Translations under genes and position numbers: made by a program
DNA from: a virus
Lineage: Duplodnaviria > Heunggongvirae > Uroviricota > Caudoviricetes
Virus record (IMG/VR): IMGVR_UViG_2721755720_000004
DNA length: 48,041 nt
Direction: 5' to 3' (one strand)
Shown here: one piece after another, positions 8,596 to 36,372 of the stretch
Layout: every line of letters begins with the position of its first letter
Position numbering within the stretch: position 1 is the stretch's first letter
Notes under the pieces: model-generated
Databases searched by the model: none
Seen by the model: the letters and a program-made list of their open reading frames with translations, nothing else
What the model was told of the DNA's origin: nothing

Positions 8596-9759
8596 TCAGA
8601 ACTGATAAGTCATCCCAACAGCAACGATATTATCTGTCGCAATACCGGCTTTCTGGGTAAATTCGCTTTCATCAATCAGGTTAATTTTATAATCAACATA
8701 AGTGGACATATTTTTGTTAAAGTAATAAGTCGCACCGACATCAATATATTTAACCAGATCCTGGTCGCCATGGTTCACACCACCAACCATAACATCCTGT
8801 CCGCGGGACTGCAGATAAGCCAGAGATGGACGCAGGCCAAAATCGAACTGATACTGAGCAACCATTTCAAGGTTTTGTGCTTTATCCGCAACCCCGGTAT
8901 CACCAAAAGTGGTCATATTCTGGGTTTCGGAATAAATTGCAGCCAGATACAGATTGTTTGCATCATATTTAAGGCCAGTCCCCCACATCTCAGCATACTT
9001 ACCTTTTGCAACGCTGCCGGAATCAACGGACACTTCTTTTTCCGTCACATCCCCCGTTAAAGGATCTTTGACTTCAATAGTTTTGCTACCATTCAGGCCA
9101 TTAACCTGCTTACCTGTACGATCTGACTTAGTATACGCTGCCACAAAACCAAAACCATCAAACTCATAGCTGGCAGAGAAACCATATCCATCACCATTAG
9201 ACTTCTGGAGGTCATCTCGCTCATTTTTTCCCTGATACTGGGCTGCAAAGTTAAGACCATCCACCAGTCCGAAGAAATCTGTATTGCGGTAAGTCAGCAC
9301 TCCGGAAGTACGAGCAGTCATGAAGTTATCAGTCTGCGTCCAGCCATCGCCACCAAATTCTGGCAGAACGTCTGTATACGAACCGACATCATAAGCGATA
9401 CCATAATTACGCCCGTAATCAATGCTACCTAAATCAGCGAATTTCAAACCGGCAAATGCCAGACGGGTTTTATTGCCTGCCGTCCCTTCAGACTCGGCCT
9501 TATTACCTGAAAACTGATATTCCCAGTGACCAAAACCTGTCAGTTGATCATTGATCTGAGTCTCACCTTTAAAACCAAGACGTGCATAGGTCTTATCGCC
9601 ATCATCACCTTTATCGTCTGAGAAGTAATGGAGAGCAGTTACACGACCATAAAGATCCAGCTTATTACCATCTTTATTATAAACTTCTGCTGCCTGAGCC
9701 CCCGCAGCAAACATCACTGCCACTGCAACAGCAGAAAGTGCCACTGTCATTTTTTTCAT
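8596..9759 (-). CDS. general-diffusion porin (OmpC/NmpC/Lc-like) carried as cargo inside the tail gene cluster
   Basis: 387 aa with Sec signal peptide [23 protein letters not shown]; then [17 protein letters not shown]...HYFSD and C-terminal ...YVDYKINL...GMTYQF ending in Phe, hallmarks of enterobacterial 16-strand porins; AT-rich flanks. Confidence 0.9.
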
Positions 9760-23843: not shown

Positions 23844-24038
23844 ATGTCAACTAAGAATAGAACCCGCAGAACAACAACCCGCAACATCCGCTTTCCTAAC
23901 CAAATGATTGAACAAATCAACATCGCTCTTGATCAAAAAGGGTCCGGGAATTTCTCAGCCTGGGTCATTGAAGCCTGCCGTCGGAGACTAACGTCAGAAA
24001 AGAGAGCATATACATCAATCCAAAGTGATGATGAATGA
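23844..24038 (+). CDS. small basic protein, possible ribbon-helix-helix DNA-binding protein
   Basis: 64 aa, Arg/Thr-rich N-terminus then NIRFPNQMIEQINIALDQKGSGNFSAWVIEACRRRL; first ORF of the AT-rich cassette between cos and Rz. Confidence 0.35.
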   Translation: MSTKNRTRRTTTRNIRFPNQMIEQINIALDQKGSGNFSAWVIEACRRRLTSEKRAYTSIQSDDE

Positions 24039-24403: not shown

Positions 24404-24946
24404 ATGAACAGATACTCTAAACTTCAAATTCAATTACATTGGCTGACTCTCGTATTAATAGCTATAGCCTGTGCTGCAATGGAACTTCGAGGTTTGTTTC
24501 CTAAAGGGTCTTCCTCCTATTTGCTTATGAGAGAAACACATTACAATGCTGGTATATTTATTCTTCTACTGATGATAATAAGAGTAATTATCAATAATAA
24601 ATATATAACACCAGCTATTACGCCGCCCCCACCTGCATGGCAAATGATATCAGCCAAATTCATGCAAACCCTGTTATACATATCTTTTTTGGTGTTACCA
24701 GTATCAGGACTTGCAATCATGGTTTTTGGAGGTAAAGCATGGAGCCTTCTGGGGATTGATATTCCCACTTTCGCTAACACCGACGGAGAAGTAAAATCCG
24801 TAGCCAAAACTATTCATGAATCACTTGCAAATATTGGTTATTTATTAATCACACTCCATGCTGGCGCTGCATTAATTCATCATTATATTCAGAAGGACAA
24901 TACACTTGTCAGAATGCTCCCTGAGCACCAGCATGATAAAAAGTGA
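24404..24946 (+). CDS. cytochrome b561 family protein (CybB-like di-haem membrane protein)
   Basis: 180 aa; MNRYSKLQIQLHWLTLVLIA...MELRG and C-terminal HAGAALIHHYIQKDNTLVRMLP closely resemble E. coli CybB; four predicted transmembrane helices with conserved His; AT-rich. Confidence 0.85.
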   Translation: MNRYSKLQIQLHWLTLVLIAIACAAMELRGLFPKGSSSYLLMRETHYNAGIFILLLMIIRVIINNKYITPAITPPPPAWQMISAKFMQTLLYISFLVLPVSGLAIMVFGGKAWSLLGIDIPTFANTDGEVKSVAKTIHESLANIGYLLITLHAGAALIHHYIQKDNTLVRMLPEHQHDKK

Positions 24947-25020: not shown

Positions 25021-25527
25021 TTAATACGTCTCTGTCAGATAACTTGAATCTCTGACTGAATTATAAATGCGTTCACATGTCAATCCAGCGCGGTAATTTT
25101 CGTCAGCGCGTTTAGCATAATATCCAGCTTCTTCTGCAAGGCTTCCGAGCATGTCGGCGAGCATTGCGACGTTGCTTTCGATTGTTTTGCTTCTGACGGT
25201 AGCGGCAATATTTGCGGTATGCTCTGCCGCTTCCAGTCTGACGGTAAGCTTTGTTGCTTTTTCCCGCAACTGACTAACAGTGGCAGATAAACCAGCAGCA
25301 GTAGCATTGGCTTTGACAGCTTTCTCTTGTGCATCTTTGACAGCCTCATCACGGGCAACAATACGCCCCTGTTCAATCATCCTGACAGCAATCTGCGTAT
25401 TAACAATCTGCGACGACTCTTCACTGTCCCGCTCAGCCCATTTCGTTTGCCATTCTCTTTCACACCAGACATTTCCAGCAATAAATGAGCCAATTGACAG
25501 CAATACAATGGCCACAAGCTTAATCAA
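25021..25527 (-). CDS. Rz: i-spanin (Rz-like)
   Basis: 168 aa; N-terminal transmembrane helix then coiled-coil periplasmic domain; start overlaps the lysozyme stop. Confidence 0.7.
   Translation of the reverse strand: MIKLVAIVLLSIGSFIAGNVWCEREWQTKWAERDSEESSQIVNTQIAVRMIEQGRIVARDEAVKDAQEKAVKANATAAGLSATVSQLREKATKLTVRLEAAEHTANIAATVRSKTIESNVAMLADMLGSLAEEAGYYAKRADENYRAGLTCERIYNSVRDSSYLTETY
25080..25334 (-). CDS. Rz1: o-spanin (Rz1-like lipoprotein) embedded in the +1 frame of Rz
   Basis: Embedded ORF with signal peptide MHKRKLSKPMLLLLVYLPLLVSC (lipobox LVSC); start choice is tentative. Confidence 0.55.
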   Translation of the reverse strand: MHKRKLSKPMLLLLVYLPLLVSCGKKQQSLPSDWKRQSIPQILPLPSEAKQSKATSQCSPTCSEALQKKLDIMLNALTKITALD

Positions 25528-26057
25528 TTATCTATCCCCCAGCACGTCAGCATGCTTTCCTGGTCACGCCGTGATACCTGACCAGAGCAGTTGTTTGAGC
25601 GAATACGGCAGTCTTTGCCACCATCCTTAATCCACCAGCGAATCGCCTCGCAGGCACCTTTACGATCACCGGCATTAAGCCGCTTATAAAACGTCGACGG
25701 GAAACACTTACCTGGGCCAATGTTGTACGGACAGAACGACGCGATACCTGCTTTCTGCGGTTCAGTCAGCGGTACCTGGATATTTTCCTCCACCCACGCC
25801 AGCGCCTTATTGCGCTCGATGGCGTTCACCTGCTCGCATTTTGTCTTCGTCAGTTTCATGCCAGGAACGACAGGCTTACCGTCCACCATTGTGGCACCAC
25901 GGCAGATGGTCCAGATACCCGTACCATCACGGTATGCTGTTATGTGGTTGCCTTCCTTTTCATCCAGAAACTGGTCGAGAATTTCAGGCGCAGAAGCCCC
26001 TGCGGCAATCAGCGCCAGAACGGCAGCCGACAGGCCGTATCTGATTTTTGTGTTCAT
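25524..26057 (-). CDS. R: endolysin, T4/R21-type lysozyme with N-terminal signal-arrest-release (SAR) segment
   Basis: 177 aa; weakly hydrophobic Gly/Ala-rich N-terminus (GLSAAVLALIAAGASA) then E-8aa-D-5aa-T catalytic spacing (EGNHITAYRDGTGIWT); resembles DLP12 RrrD / phage 21 R. Confidence 0.9.
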   Translation of the reverse strand: MNTKIRYGLSAAVLALIAAGASAPEILDQFLDEKEGNHITAYRDGTGIWTICRGATMVDGKPVVPGMKLTKTKCEQVNAIERNKALAWVEENIQVPLTEPQKAGIASFCPYNIGPGKCFPSTFYKRLNAGDRKGACEAIRWWIKDGGKDCRIRSNNCSGQVSRRDQESMLTCWGIDN

Positions 26058-26174
26058 GGGGATTTATCGTTTTTTAATCTCTTGATATGTTAAGTATATA
26101 ATCCAACACTCATGGCAGGTCTCATAAACATATCCCTTGAGACACAACAGATAACAACAAATGAGGCCTTATAA

Positions 26175-26489
26175 ATGAACAGTAAAGAAAGTTTGCGCAG
26201 AAGATTTTTACAACTAATGACAGAAAACGTTAAATCAGAGTTACTTCTTCAGATGGCGGACAATAACGAAGTAACGAGCAGCATTCTTGCAGACCCTTAC
26301 GGTAAACTCTCACATAAAACGCTTGATATTATTACCACAACATTAACACCACTGATGCTTCAACGGCTGAAACATAATATCAACGCATGGGTTAATGAAG
26401 AATTAAGTCCTCCCTGCTTATGGGATTCTCGTTACGCATGTCAGCAAAAAATGCGAATTTTCAACTTACTATCACCAAAGCTCAGGTAG
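26175..26489 (+). CDS. hypothetical protein on the opposite strand, inserted between holin and endolysin
   Basis: 104 aa, AT-rich; own TATAAT-like -10 (tatataat) and GAGG ribosome-binding site upstream; no recognisable motif. Confidence 0.4.
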   Translation: MNSKESLRRRFLQLMTENVKSELLLQMADNNEVTSSILADPYGKLSHKTLDIITTTLTPLMLQRLKHNINAWVNEELSPPCLWDSRYACQQKMRIFNLLSPKLR

Positions 26490-26744
26490 CCATAAAATCC
26501 TGCCCTTCATGGCATACAGGATATCAATGGAATCACAATGACCGCCTCTTGCACAGCTGTGTCCCTGACACCCCGACAACTCAAATTTTCAGTATCTTCT
26601 GCTATCTAAAGAGAAAGCATACAAAGTCAAGGACCTTTCATCACATCCTGTTATTGATTGCCTGTTACCTTTGCATACCTCAGGGAACGTTTTTTCAGTT
26701 AGAAATATTCATTTTACAACCAGTTCGTATTTTTTATTCATCGA

Positions 26745-26960
26745 CTACTCTCCCCGCGCCGCCTTACGACGGTCCTCTTTAATCTTGAAGTACAGGTTCG
26801 TCAGGTACGTTAACAGACCAAACAGCAGACTCCCCAGCACGCCTATTGCCGCCCACTGAGACGGGGATACCCTGTCCAGCAACTGCAGGAACCAGTATCC
26901 CGTCCCCACCGCAGACGTGGTGTATGACACACCTGTTGTGATTTTTTCCATCTGGTACAT
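26745..26960 (-). CDS. S: holin, S21-type pinholin
   Basis: 71 aa; ...[51 protein letters not shown] closely resembles the phage 21 / DLP12 pinholin. Confidence 0.85.
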
Positions 26961-27037
26961 ATCCCCGCCTCCCGTTCACCGGAAGCGCACGATAATAAAA
27001 GACCACCGCAATATGCTGGTGGCCTGTGCGTCATGTA

Positions 27038-27343
27038 TCACAGCATGGTTGCTGGCTCCGGCTGCAGAACATCATTTGGTTGTTCCTCACCACCGGTTTG
27101 TGCCTCAGGTCGTTCGCTGCTGTTTTCCACCGGAGAATCTGCTGTATTCTCACCATCCCCTGCCTGTGGCGCAGATGCCCCCTCAGCAGGTCCGATAAGC
27201 TCATCCAGAATCGCTTCCACATCCGCATCAATCTGAGCCTCAAACGTTTTACGGATAGACGCTTTCAGCGTCCCGCGGACTTCTTCAGTGCGCAGCGCTG
27301 ACTTCACTGCATCAGCAGTGACCAGTTTTTTCATTTCTGTCAT
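27038..27343 (-). CDS. hypothetical acidic protein upstream of holin
   Basis: Start set at MTEMKKL; basic N-terminal half, acidic Pro/Glu-rich C-terminus; no motif recognised. Confidence 0.4.
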   Translation of the reverse strand: MTEMKKLVTADAVKSALRTEEVRGTLKASIRKTFEAQIDADVEAILDELIGPAEGASAPQAGDGENTADSPVENSSERPEAQTGGEEQPNDVLQPEPATML

Positions 27344-27368
27344 GGTTTTTTCTCGCTGTAAGATGTGA

Positions 27369-27545
27369 TTACGGGAGGGACGTGGACTTTGGCTCTGCTG
27401 ACTGACCGGCACTGATTTTTTCAGCCGCCATGGCATCAATCTTTTTACAGATGTAGTTTCGGATGATTTTATAACCGCCACTAACCAGATACAGTGCACA
27501 CACAGCCGTACAGAAATACAGCTGTATTTGCTGAATAAATGACAT
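27369..27545 (-). CDS. small hydrophobic protein (58 aa), below the ORF-track cut-off
   Basis: Hand-translated MSFIQQIQLYFCTAVCALYLVSGGYKIIRNYICKKIDAMAAEKISAGQSAEPKSTSLP; one predicted transmembrane helix. Confidence 0.3.
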   Translation of the reverse strand: MSFIQQIQLYFCTAVCALYLVSGGYKIIRNYICKKIDAMAAEKISAGQSAEPKSTSLP

Positions 27546-27707
27546 ATACCCTTACCTTTAATATTGACTGGAGAAACAGTTTTAAGGTAAAAAATTACTG
27601 AGTTAATGGTTATCTCTTATTGCAAGCATTGTATCCCTTTATGGGTTGTGAATATCACCCGCCAGTCAACAAATGGCTCTTTGACCGGCGGGATTTTTTT
27701 ATCCTGC

Positions 27708-29846: not shown

Positions 29847-29849
29847 GTC

Positions 29850-29876
29850 CATAAAAAAGCCCCTCCGGAGAGGGGC
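29850..29876 (-). terminator. intrinsic terminator (minus strand) about 30 nt downstream of repeat unit 1
   Basis: Minus strand GCCCCTCTCCGGAGGGGC then TTTTTT; 7-bp GC-rich stem with 4-nt loop. Confidence 0.6.
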
Positions 29877-29907
29877 ATACTAGCTATATATCCATTTATC
29901 ATTGGCT

Positions 29908-30037
29908 GCGTGGTGCCGGGTGCCTCCCGGTGAGCTCAGTCTGGTGTCACTGAGCCCGCACATTCTCGATCCAAGTTATCGTCGGAGATAATACCTGATA
30001 CACCAGACGCCCCTCCGCACAGGGGGATTCACCACGC
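29908..30037 (-). ncRNA. candidate structured small RNA, repeat unit 1 of 4
   Basis: 130 nt; terminal 8 bp GCGTGGTG/CACCACGC pair; conserved GCCGGGTGCCTCCCGGTG and AGGGGGATTC motifs; variable centre with its own 9-bp stem (GTCTGGTGT/ACACCAGAC). Strand inferred from flanking terminator and one G-U wobble in unit 3. Confidence 0.45.
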
Positions 30038-30264
30038 GCAGAGAAGGATACTGAACACTATTTTCTCCAGGCAATATGCAATAACATGAAGTGTGAGATG
30101 ACTTACAATTATAAAAAACAGCCTACAGAATACTCCTAAATAAAGCCATATCAAAATGAGTAACACAAAAAGGAACCAGGCAAAAATTTACGAGCAGGTA
30201 TTATCCAGCAACAGTTCAGACGCCATAACTTATTGCCGATAGCTACCATCAATAATTTCTTTCA

Positions 30265-30289
30265 TAAAAAAGCCCCTCTGAAGAGGGGC
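30265..30289 (-). terminator. intrinsic terminator (minus strand) about 30 nt downstream of repeat unit 2
   Basis: Minus strand GCCCCTCTTCAGAGGGGC then TTTTTT. Confidence 0.6.
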
Positions 30290-30316
30290 TGACATACGCA
30301 TTTGCTTTCATCATCA

Positions 30317-30439
30317 ATATGGCGCCGGGTGCCTCCCGGTGCTCCATAACTGATTAATATGGAACGCGGTTTCATTCAGTTGCATTCATGAATAACACTC
30401 TAATCAGTCCGCCCCGCCGCTTAGGGGGATTCGCCATAT
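30317..30439 (-). ncRNA. candidate structured small RNA, repeat unit 2 of 4
   Basis: 123 nt; terminal stem ATATGGCG/CGCCATAT, which covaries with the other units; same conserved 5' and 3' motifs. Confidence 0.45.
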
Positions 30440-30574
30440 AAATTGAAAGTACTGAACACATCTGTCACAAACAATATGCAATTGTATGAATTGTGAGATT
30501 ATTATCAATAACACAAAATTACAGCTCTAGTACATAAACAGCAGATTAAACAAGAACAACAAAAGTATTGAATT

Positions 30575-30698
30575 GCACGGTGCCGGGTGCCTCCCGGTGA
30601 ATTCTGCAATGACCAGACAGAATCCGCAACTTGCTACTAACGCTAATGCGACCAAGCCTCAGTCATTATGCCCCTCCGCACAGGGGGATTCACCATGC
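30575..30698 (-). ncRNA. candidate structured small RNA, repeat unit 3 of 4
   Basis: 124 nt; terminal stem GCACGGTG/CACCATGC (one C-A on the plus strand, G-U on the minus strand); conserved motifs present; no canonical terminator nearby. Confidence 0.35.
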
Positions 30699-30826
30699 GC
30701 TAAAAAAATACAAAACGTCACGTCACTCTGACAATACGAAGCACCATAAAATGTGAGTTATTTATCAATTCTTAATTCTGGTTACAGGAATATTCCGAAT
30801 CAAATCTTTAAAAAAAGAAATTCAAA

Positions 30827-30931
30827 TGCATGGTGCCGGGTGCCTCCCGGTGAACAGACCGTCCGTGATACCAGTCGGCAACACAGGAAATTAATGGTAT
30901 CACCCCACCGCACAGGGGGATTCACCATGCA
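30827..30931 (-). ncRNA. candidate structured small RNA, repeat unit 4 of 4
   Basis: 105 nt; 9-bp terminal stem TGCATGGTG/CACCATGCA; internal 9-bp stem GTGATACCA/TGGTATCAC; conserved motifs present. Confidence 0.35.
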
Positions 30932-31319
30932 GGCGTTTTCTTAGCAAACTAACTGCGCGCCCGGCAACTCCCAACCACATAAAACGTGGAGTTTGTAGCA
31001 TTTATGCACATAACTCACAGGGGTTATCTTAAAAAAAGCTGACCATGCTTCCCCGGCAACGCAATAACTTTATTCCCTGAAGTGGCATCCCCCGTATTGT
31101 CGGCAGGCTCAAAAAGGAGCCAGTCATCTGAGGATGACTGGAAAAAGGAAAGATAAAAAATTATTCATCATACAACCTTCGTTGCAGGGGAGAATCCTGC
31201 GGTGCAGCAACATACAAAAACATAAGCCAACTAACAATATGCAGGCATAGCATTTTCGGATTTTGTTATATGGCACGGTAACTGAATGCTTACCTGATAT
31301 ACAGTCCGGTATAAAGTTG

Positions 31320-31585: not shown

Positions 31586-31663
31586 TGGACCGTCACCGGG
31601 GACTCGAACCCCGCATTTTCAACATAAAAAGGTTGATGCTCTTTCCTGATGAGCTAGTGACGG
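31586..31663 (-). tRNA. tRNA-like gene with an 8-nt anticodon loop (identity undetermined)
   Basis: Hand fold: acceptor CCGTCAC/GTGACGG (7 bp), U8-A9, D-stem GCTC/GAGC, anticodon stem TCAAC/GTTGA closing loop CTTTTTAT (8 nt), T-arm CGGGG-TTCGAGT-CCCCG, encoded CCA. Needs tRNAscan-SE / ARAGORN. Confidence 0.5.
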
Positions 31664-33412: not shown

Positions 33413-34234
33413 CTATCGCGTTACCCTCTTCAACTGCCACTCTGCCCATGCCTCTGCAATATCAAACCGGACCACCAGCGTGTCATAGAATTGCTTAACT
33501 GTTTTTTCCCATGAAGCGCGTGTTATCTGATTTGTCACCTCACATATGGCATCAAATGCCTCCGTTGAAGGTAATCTTTCATAGCCACGCCCACCACAAC
33601 GCTGACAGTTTCTGAAAACCGGCATACCTCGTTTTTCAGACTCTTCACGATGAATGGCAACACCGCGCCCACGGCAATCTTTACAGGCAGTGGAGACCTC
33701 CCCCTTTCCACCACACTCCGGACAGGCAACTTTTACCACCTCCCTGACTTTTTTCCATTCCTCCCAGTAAGACGGATACACGCCTTTTGTACACTTTGCC
33801 CATACTGGCGGCTTACCATCCGGATACTGAATCTTGTTTGTAAAAATCTCGCTTTCAATAAATTTTTTTCCGTGACAGCATGGGCACTGTTTTTTGCTCG
33901 CCGCGCTCCGGGCATAATCCTCAAACGCATACGAAGCCATAATGCGCATCACTACCGGTTTTATTTCTGCCGGAAGTTTTCTTAACGCTGCCACGCGATC
34001 ACACCGACTGAGAGCGTATTCTGCCAGCAGTTCTGTTGCCCGCTCCCTGTCATTCATACTGATGCCCATTTTCCCAAGGAACGCAGAAAACCCCATCTCA
34101 GCCCGATTCTGTGTCATGCCCTGCGCTGCCATCACATCAGTGATACTCAGCGCATCTTTTGACGTTGAGGCCGATGCATCCGTCAGACCCGGTGATTTTG
34201 GGGAATAGTATTTTGGTAAATCTTCCAGTTTCAT
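33413..34234 (-). CDS. putative late-gene antiterminator (Q-like), DnaJ-type zinc-finger protein
   Basis: 273 aa with four CxxCxGxG-like motifs (CPCCHGKK, CPECGGKG, CKDCRGRG, CQRCGGRG); called Q-like by position (after the nin/rusA region, directly upstream of a pR'/tR'-like pair), not by confident sequence match. Confidence 0.5.
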   Translation of the reverse strand: MKLEDLPKYYSPKSPGLTDASASTSKDALSITDVMAAQGMTQNRAEMGFSAFLGKMGISMNDRERATELLAEYALSRCDRVAALRKLPAEIKPVVMRIMASYAFEDYARSAASKKQCPCCHGKKFIESEIFTNKIQYPDGKPPVWAKCTKGVYPSYWEEWKKVREVVKVACPECGGKGEVSTACKDCRGRGVAIHREESEKRGMPVFRNCQRCGGRGYERLPSTEAFDAICEVTNQITRASWEKTVKQFYDTLVVRFDIAEAWAEWQLKRVTR

Positions 34235-35971: not shown

Positions 35972-36127
35972 TTACTCCTCAGGTTCGTAGACTGTGAAAA
36001 CAGCGACCTCCGTCTGGCCGGTTCGGATTCGTACCTCGCAGAGGTCTTTCCTCGTTACCAGTGCCGTCACTATGACGGTTAAACAGATGACGATCAGGGC
36101 GATTAACGTCGCCTTTTGCTGCTTCAT
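35972..36127 (-). CDS. hok: Hok/Gef-family type I toxin
   Basis: 51 aa MKQQKATLIALIVICLTVIVTALVTRKDLCEVRIRTGQTEVAVFTVYEPEE, near-identical to the Hok/Gef/RelF family consensus; the in-frame upstream extension in the ORF track is not used. Confidence 0.85.
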   Translation of the reverse strand: MKQQKATLIALIVICLTVIVTALVTRKDLCEVRIRTGQTEVAVFTVYEPEE

Positions 36128-36372
36128 AGCCTGCTTCTCCTTGCCTTTCGGCACGTAAGAGGCTAACCTACATTTGTGAGACATAGATTGGGCCTCAGAT
36201 TAATGTTAAGCGTCTTGCAGGACGCGTTATGTTAACTGGGGCTTTTCTCTGTCTGCCTTACGGCGGCATGCCCGAGGCAGACAGCCTCAAGCACCCGCAG
36301 CAATTCTACTTAACTCTCGCTTTACAGCAAACCGTTTTTGCCCAATATGGGAATTCCCATATCGCAATGAAT

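Follow-up and report, generated by a model that had tools for sequence, protein, structure and literature searches.

What is the DNA that separates the holin (S) and endolysin (R) genes of this prophage, and is the open reading frame that it carries on the opposite strand a gene? The window, i.e. the whole stretch of 48,041 nucleotides that was analyzed, is a lambdoid E. coli prophage whose late genes are on the minus strand; antiterminator Q comes first and is followed by a nanS-p-like esterase gene, the lysis genes and terminase. The features that frame the question are the following:

33413-34234, minus strand: antiterminator Q (PF03589).
26745-26960, minus strand: S21-type class II pinholin, 71 aa, dual start Met1/Met4 (MYQM) (PF04971 'P21 holin S', E=7e-33).
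26175-26489, plus strand: ORF104, 104 aa, 12.1 kDa, pI 9.3, family phrog_1853 (phrog_1853 profile, dN/dS, AlphaFold2 model).
25524-26057, minus strand: SAR endolysin, T4-lysozyme-like, 177 aa (PF00959, E=7e-25).
25021-25527, minus strand: i-spanin-like DUF2514 protein (PF10721, E=2e-44).
Within 25080-25376, minus strand: o-spanin-like ORF with a lipobox-like LLVSCG, in another frame of the DUF2514 gene (list of open reading frames).

The translation of the endolysin gene shows an N-terminal Gly/Ala-rich SAR-like segment, GLSAAVLALIAAGASA, and an E-X8-D-X5-T motif. The ORF embedded in the DUF2514 spanin gene is probably the o-spanin (Rz1 equivalent). A first-pass annotation, made from the letters alone, had described the S-R interval as about 0.7 kb of AT-rich DNA splitting the holin-endolysin pair, and its boundaries were recovered: the spacer extends from 26058 to 26744 (687 bp), with a GC content of 0.375-0.44 compared to 0.49-0.57 in the flanks. 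Such a low value is what cargo acquired by horizontal transfer typically shows. In phage 933W the homologous S and R are separated by 4 nt, so the spacer is extra DNA, as the annotation had assumed in taking adjacency for the norm and the interval for an insertion. Some 3,400 E. coli records show the two ends of the query, holin and lysozyme, but lack the spacer. A second plus-strand candidate, a 120-aa ORF at 26420-26782, was rejected as a gene: it has no family match, overlaps the end of the holin gene and spans the relic of another gene described below. The only Rfam match in the spacer at E<=5 is a chance snoRNA, and no EHEC prophage sRNA model matched there. The Pas sRNAs are reported to lie between nanS-p and the holin, outside the S-R interval (10.64898/2026.05.13.724894).

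Some observations concern the late region upstream of the lysis genes. Four consecutive Rfam matches to STnc100 (RF02076, 77-133 bits, minus strand) are present in 29847-30960, between the phage tRNAs and the nanS-p-like esterase gene:

29847-30067, minus strand: STnc100 copy (RF02076).
30260-30465, minus strand: STnc100 copy (RF02076).
30530-30727, minus strand: STnc100 copy (RF02076).
30782-30960, minus strand: STnc100 copy (RF02076).

The copy nearest the esterase gene matches the terminal hairpin and T-run of the model, and the copy at 30530-30727 has a deletion there. Tandem Repeats Finder called no array over these copies. In Stx phages this position, from the tRNAs to nanS-p, is occupied by the stx genes. 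At 31586-31663 (minus strand) ARAGORN reports a tRNA to which it assigns no amino acid and whose anticodon has four bases, 'tttt'; NCBI labels the counterpart in a near-identical prophage (M3) tRNA-Lys. The anticodon loop may be enlarged, or the tRNA may be degenerate.

ORF104 is a genuine protein-coding gene under purifying selection. This conclusion follows from four observations. Among nine homologues drawn from different contexts, all of which keep the frame, pairwise dN/dS is 0.13-0.33, for protein identities of 52-97% and a dS that reaches saturation. The frame is uninterrupted in each of the 65 loci where a homologue is present. Between the window and the O157-type copy, 2.9% of the sites in ORF104 are different (3 non-synonymous, 6 synonymous), compared to 7.5-12.8% for the upstream DNA, the downstream relic, R and S. 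Finally, AlphaFold2, run on an alignment of 15 sequences, gives a confident five-helix model (pLDDT 86.6, pTM 0.76). The extent of the gene was also considered. The version of ORF104 produced by the NCBI pipeline starts at Met15 and has 90 aa. The first 14 codons are conserved among homologues, a Shine-Dalgarno sequence precedes the upstream ATG, and the homologue of Stx2 phage 86 has Ile at the position of Met15; the start at the upstream ATG, giving 104 aa, is therefore better supported by the sequences than the start at Met15.

The protein resembles little that has been classified. Its sole family match is phrog_1853 (E=4.1e-45, residues 1-102 on profile positions 57-158 of 159), labelled unknown function in PHROGs. 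Pfam has no family for it at E<=0.1, DUF1327 (PF07041) included; NCBIfam gave no match, BFVD holds no relative, and a PDB profile search returned only a designed protein at E=0.44. The earlier remark that the protein carries no recognisable motif is thus borne out. The PADLOC-DB v2 defence models gave no match at E<=1 and lend no support to the defence role that had been put forward. Taken over Pfam, NCBIfam, PADLOC, PDB and BFVD, homology and fold comparisons indicate no activity. Neither a transmembrane segment nor a signal peptide was found (maximum 19-residue Kyte-Doolittle mean 0.52), and since no hydrophobic segment is present the protein is predicted to be soluble and cytoplasmic. ORF104 does not have the characters of a holin or antiholin, as it has no transmembrane segment and is on the opposite strand in 65/65 loci. 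Identity with YdfR, the gene found between S and R in the Qin prophage of K-12, was excluded by the strand and by the absence of a DUF1327 match.

To the right of ORF104, 255 bp separate its stop from the end of the holin gene. The first-pass annotation had seen in the whole interval a single insertion with some spacer DNA. The insertion of ORF104 stands, and the right-hand 255 bp are, as read from the sequence, a decayed second gene, of which two pieces can be recognised:

26709-26741, minus strand: YdfR/DUF1327 stub, MNKKYELVVK then a stop, starting 3 nt past the holin stop (tblastn).
26537-26668, minus strand: relic of a phrog_1085-type C-terminal domain with three in-frame stops (profile HMM; tblastn E=4e-4).

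The start of ydfR in an E. coli locus that retains this gene (L006) and orf5 of Stx2 phage 86 share 95% and 89% identity, respectively, with the 39 bp at 26706-26744. On the relic, a profile HMM made from six neighbour genes that are intact reaches 19.3 bits; the best of 500 shuffles scored 6.2 (0/500 reach 19.3). Because stub and relic are both present, the interval is made up of ORF104 and the wreck of a second gene rather than of an insertion and a spacer. An intact phrog_1085 gene of 189-268 aa is found on the minus strand between the holin gene and the ORF104 homologue in Stx2 phage 86, Stx2_12E129 and several E. coli loci. One C-terminal domain is common to all these proteins. Their N-terminus is YdfR/DUF1327 in orf5 of phage 86 and consists of other regions elsewhere; intact YdfR and orf5 match PF07041 at E=6e-44 and E=4e-45, respectively. 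The neighbour lost from the window was thus probably a YdfR/DUF1327 N-terminal domain fused to a phrog_1085 C-terminal domain, as in orf5 of Stx2 phage 86.

The neighbour gene being intact in Stx2 phage 86 and related phages and decayed in the window, the S-R junction is, judging from the sequences compared, a polymorphic cargo slot of lambdoid E. coli prophages. At least five states of occupancy are distinguished:

933W: empty.
Qin-type prophages: YdfR alone.
Stx2_95: phrog_1085 alone.
Stx2 phage 86 and related phages: phrog_1085 and ORF104.
Window and O157 type: ORF104 and relic.

These five states indicate that ORF104 and phrog_1085 are separable. Other accessory genes were observed in the window. 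Another AT-rich block (GC 0.33-0.43) on the opposite strand is located between the spanin and terminase genes (24404-24946 and 23844-24038, both plus strand) and encodes a cytochrome b561 family protein (PF01292, E=6e-25) and a DUF3950/YlcI-type ORF; O157-type prophages have a PerC/pchA gene at this position. An OmpC-like porin gene (Porin_1, E=4e-144) is present among the tail genes at 8596-9759 (minus strand). The early region contains, at 36122-36296 (minus strand), a sok antisense RNA (RF01794, 116 bits) of the hok/sok type I toxin-antitoxin, and the related M3 prophage has a second Hok/Gef gene near the tail fibre.

The distribution of ORF104 was analyzed at several scales. The phrog_1853-type family amounts to 17 clusters among 5.8 billion proteins. 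When 1.84 billion representatives were searched exhaustively with a profile, only 22 proteins came up; the convincing ones are all family members of about 100 aa, and two long proteins at E~1e-3 are probably spurious. No homologue was found in the GTDB species-representative genomes (185,579 species), which suggests that the family is limited to the accessory DNA of E. coli. In E. coli it is widespread, a point that the first-pass annotation had overlooked, together with the existing 'hypothetical' annotation of the element in EHEC genomes. Of 5,426 complete genomes, 674 (~12%) contain the spacer, 625 of them at a coverage of at least 80%. In E. coli M3 and CI5 the locus is 99.9% identical. 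Most copies have about 94% identity and are found in O157:H7, O145, O26, O103 and O111 strains. Prophage Sp4 of O157 Sakai carries a homologue with 97% identity (ECs_1097 / WP_000138558), and orf6 of Stx2-converting phage 86 (BAF34038) is a homologue with 52% identity, both in the same position and orientation as in the window. The Stx2-86-type allele is present in 90 further genomes, O104:H4 included. Megablast of the spacer against the phage collection gave no match, and the allele found next to a porin gene (see below) is absent from the complete E. coli genomes searched.

ORF104 is not new as a feature, because it has been catalogued since the Sakai genome and is included in PHROGs; its homologues are named 'hypothetical protein' in every source. 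Literature text searches for ECs1097 and ECs1098 found no paper, and the surveys of Stx-phage lysis cassettes do not describe cargo between S and R. An RNA-seq paper on lysogens gives no values for prophage genes. In the searched tables of an Hfq-CLIP supplement, ECs1097, ECs1096 and coordinates within the S-R interval are absent. The Sakai Sp4 intergenic region ECs1100...ECs1101 is row 24 of the supplementary table of Hfq-bound intergenic regions (PMC4104026). Its counterpart in the window (~26961-27700) is just upstream of the holin gene and contains ORFs for DUF826 and DUF1378 proteins. The new elements are the proof of coding and constraint, the corrected start, the adjacent pseudogene and the description of the S-R slot with its five states.

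Examination of the genomic contexts shows that ORF104 is antiparallel to the neighbouring late or lysis genes in 65/65 loci. In three loci (L014-L016) it lies between Q and an unrelated lysis cassette (holin_8/holin_3_7/GH108), divergent from the holin gene, and a porin gene is found downstream of it on the same strand. In three others (L010-L012) its neighbours are a PerC gene and chromosomal genes; neither a lysozyme nor a holin gene survives intact, and the aligned upstream DNA retains the first bases of the lysozyme gene. One locus (L013) has it among IS elements, and in Sakai Sp4 the homologue is in an IS-bracketed lysis segment. ORF104 thus stays intact where the neighbour gene or the entire lysis cassette has decayed. 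Since it has survived the decay of its prophage and the cargo gene beside it has not, its protein may be useful to the lysogen, and these comparisons make it a reasonable candidate for a lysogen-benefiting factor.

To evaluate how ORF104 may be expressed we considered the sequences on both sides of the gene. The following signals, all on the plus strand, are found upstream:

26074-26079, plus strand: candidate -35 TTAATC, 17-nt spacing, 3/6 consensus (weak) (sequence).
26097-26102, plus strand: candidate -10 TATAAT, within tatataat at 26095-26102 (sequence).
26119-26143, plus strand: inverted repeat GTCTCA-N13-TGAGAC in the presumed 5' leader (RNAalifold: 6 pairs, one compensatory).
26163-26166, plus strand: GAGG Shine-Dalgarno, 8 nt before the ATG (sequence).

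The 104-aa ORF, the tatataat element and the GAGG site are all where the first-pass annotation had placed them. A consensus promoter scan upstream of ORF104 found no full sigma-70 site. TATAAT is rare, with only 9 sites when both strands of the whole window (48 kb) are counted. The hexamer is exact in 7 of 9 aligned contexts, the porin context included; one locus (L007) has a one-base variant (CATAAT->'TACAAT'), and it is absent in the Stx2-86 homologue. The O157 copy has GAAG for GAGG, by a difference at 26165. About 115 nt of upstream DNA travel with ORF104, and the block GTATATAATCC is nearly invariant there. In cassettes that do not contain ORF104, the ~55 nt nearest the lysozyme gene make up the intergenic leader between ydfR and R, so that part of the upstream conservation may serve R. 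Together the conserved TATAAT and the GAGG support an independent expression of ORF104, from a predicted promoter with a weak -35. The inverted repeat, which is conserved, could be an operator or an RNA hairpin. A hairpin of the leader sequestering the Shine-Dalgarno sequence was suggested by the single-sequence minimum free energy structure, which pairs 26117-26125 with 26161-26169 (z=-2.9); it was rejected, the alignment favouring only the 6-bp inverted repeat, with weak covariation. Upstream of orf6 in Stx2 phage 86 (~3885-3915 of L003) a GC-rich hairpin followed by a T-run, CGCCAGCGGTAGGACACTGGCGTTTTT, is observed on the orf6 strand; as TATAAT is replaced there by this hairpin and T-run, the regulation of orf6 may differ from that of the window allele.

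Downstream, no plus-strand terminator is predicted in 26490-26744, where the fold is no better than that of shuffled sequences (z=+0.29), and a weak terminator-like site is located at 26919-26933 (plus strand), near the 5' end of the holin gene. With no terminator predicted between the ORF104 stop and the holin gene, a read-through antisense to S is plausible. To this extent the earlier proposal of a transcript running antisense into the holin is retained; the geometry on which it depends is not conserved, however, the gene being divergent from the holin gene in L014-L016. Likewise ORF104, first described as convergent with the lysis genes, is convergent with the holin gene but divergent from the endolysin gene.

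We consider it rather probable that ORF104 is an independently oriented moron-type accessory gene, placed in the polymorphic S-R slot beside a decayed cargo gene; our confidence in any specific activity is much lower. The flanking genes are adjacent in related phages and the base composition is deviant, as in morons. Classical morons carry their own terminator, and ORF104 has no factor-independent terminator of its own; this, the weak -35 and the absence of TATAAT in Stx2-86 count against the moron reading. In a lysogen ORF104 would be transcribed from its own sigma-70 promoter (candidate -10 at 26097-26102), against the Q-dependent late transcript, and, for want of a terminator, its RNA would continue into the relic and the holin gene as antisense. 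In the lytic cycle, late transcription would prevail over that of ORF104. The protein would most likely bind another protein or a nucleic acid in the cytoplasm, and the benefit to the lysogen might be superinfection exclusion, defence or host modulation. In a bolder form, which we regard as unlikely, ORF104 founds an unrecognised, lysogen-expressed family and could act in superinfection exclusion or phage defence, or hold back premature lysis; selection would keep it after decay of the prophage and of the neighbour gene, and its transcript might in addition silence the pinholin by antisense.

The same observations can be read in other ways. The transcript rather than the protein could be what matters, convergent transcription or antisense RNA over S and the S-R junction damping leaky lysis genes while the protein is secondary. 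The unit is indeed convergent with S, and before the holin gene no terminator is predicted, only the weak terminator-like site at 26919-26933 being found; but the protein sequence is under purifying selection and folds confidently, in L014-L016 it is a porin gene and not the holin gene that comes next, and L010-L013 have no intact holin gene to regulate. We therefore hold such a cis-antisense role to be quite improbable. The protein could also modulate the pinholin, the SAR endolysin or the timing of lysis, e.g. as a cytoplasmic inhibitor or chaperone. Its position beside the lysis genes of two cassettes that are unrelated to each other (S21/R21 and holin_8/holin_3_7/GH108) could point to such a role. 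Its strand is nevertheless opposite to the late operon in every locus, so that it is not co-expressed with S and R; a transmembrane segment is lacking, the gene is retained where the lysis genes are lost, and cassettes of the 933W type, without ORF104, are fully functional. ORF104 is unlikely to be part of the lysis machinery, and an accessory role in lysis seems to us very doubtful.

A partnership with the convergent phrog_1085 gene was considered as well, the two forming a module (toxin/immunity or sensor/effector) of which ORF104 in the window would be the orphan survivor. Four of the five phage-collection records with a phrog_1085 C-domain carry an adjacent ORF104 homologue, and the 3' ends of the two genes overlap or are 9 nt apart. 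Each gene is however also found alone, Stx2_95 having phrog_1085 only; about 625 complete genomes have ORF104 with the relic only, ORF104 being still constrained, and the porin, PerC and IS contexts have no intact neighbour. We give such a module a low probability. Least probable of all, in our opinion, is that ORF104 is a functionless ORFan hitch-hiking in young prophages, or plain non-coding spacer. Most copies are near-identical O157-type sequences, which favours this reading, but homologues down to 52% identity keep the frame with a dN/dS well below 1, and within the same time ORF104 was spared the decay that overtook the cargo gene beside it.

If the moron reading is retained, ORF104 is one more uncharacterised moron and is of modest interest as such; the findings contradict nothing in the current understanding of lambdoid phages. 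It is nevertheless present in roughly one in eight complete E. coli genomes, EHEC lineages included, and yet unnamed, and a diverged form is found in the Stx2 prophage type of O104:H4 strains. The description of the S-R slot in five states is useful for annotating lysis cassettes.

Comparison with known systems places the window allele among its relatives. In Stx2 phage 86 the neighbour, orf5, is intact, and a hairpin with a T-run is found upstream where the window has TATAAT; the O157 copy differs from the window in its annotated start, Met15 (90 aa), and in having GAAG where the window has GAGG. YdfR/DUF1327 (PF07041) of Qin-type prophages occupies the same class II holin-lysozyme junction as ORF104, and the window keeps a 10-codon YdfR stub exactly at the YdfR position; YdfR is however on the late strand and starts 3 nt past the holin stop, whereas ORF104 is read from the opposite strand and falls in another PHROG. 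The closest parallels in arrangement are bor (lambda/933W) and the porin genes lc (PA-2) and nmpC (DLP12). Like ORF104, these are small accessory genes located by the lysis genes and antiparallel to the Q-dependent transcript (bor is so in both 933W and Stx2-86), with a low GC content compared to their flanks, and they are absent from otherwise similar phages. In L014-L016 ORF104 is even directly upstream of an lc/nmpC-type porin gene. ORF104 differs from bor and lc in having no recognisable terminator, and in its product: bor and lc encode envelope proteins with known roles, whereas ORF104 encodes a predicted soluble, cytoplasmic helical protein.
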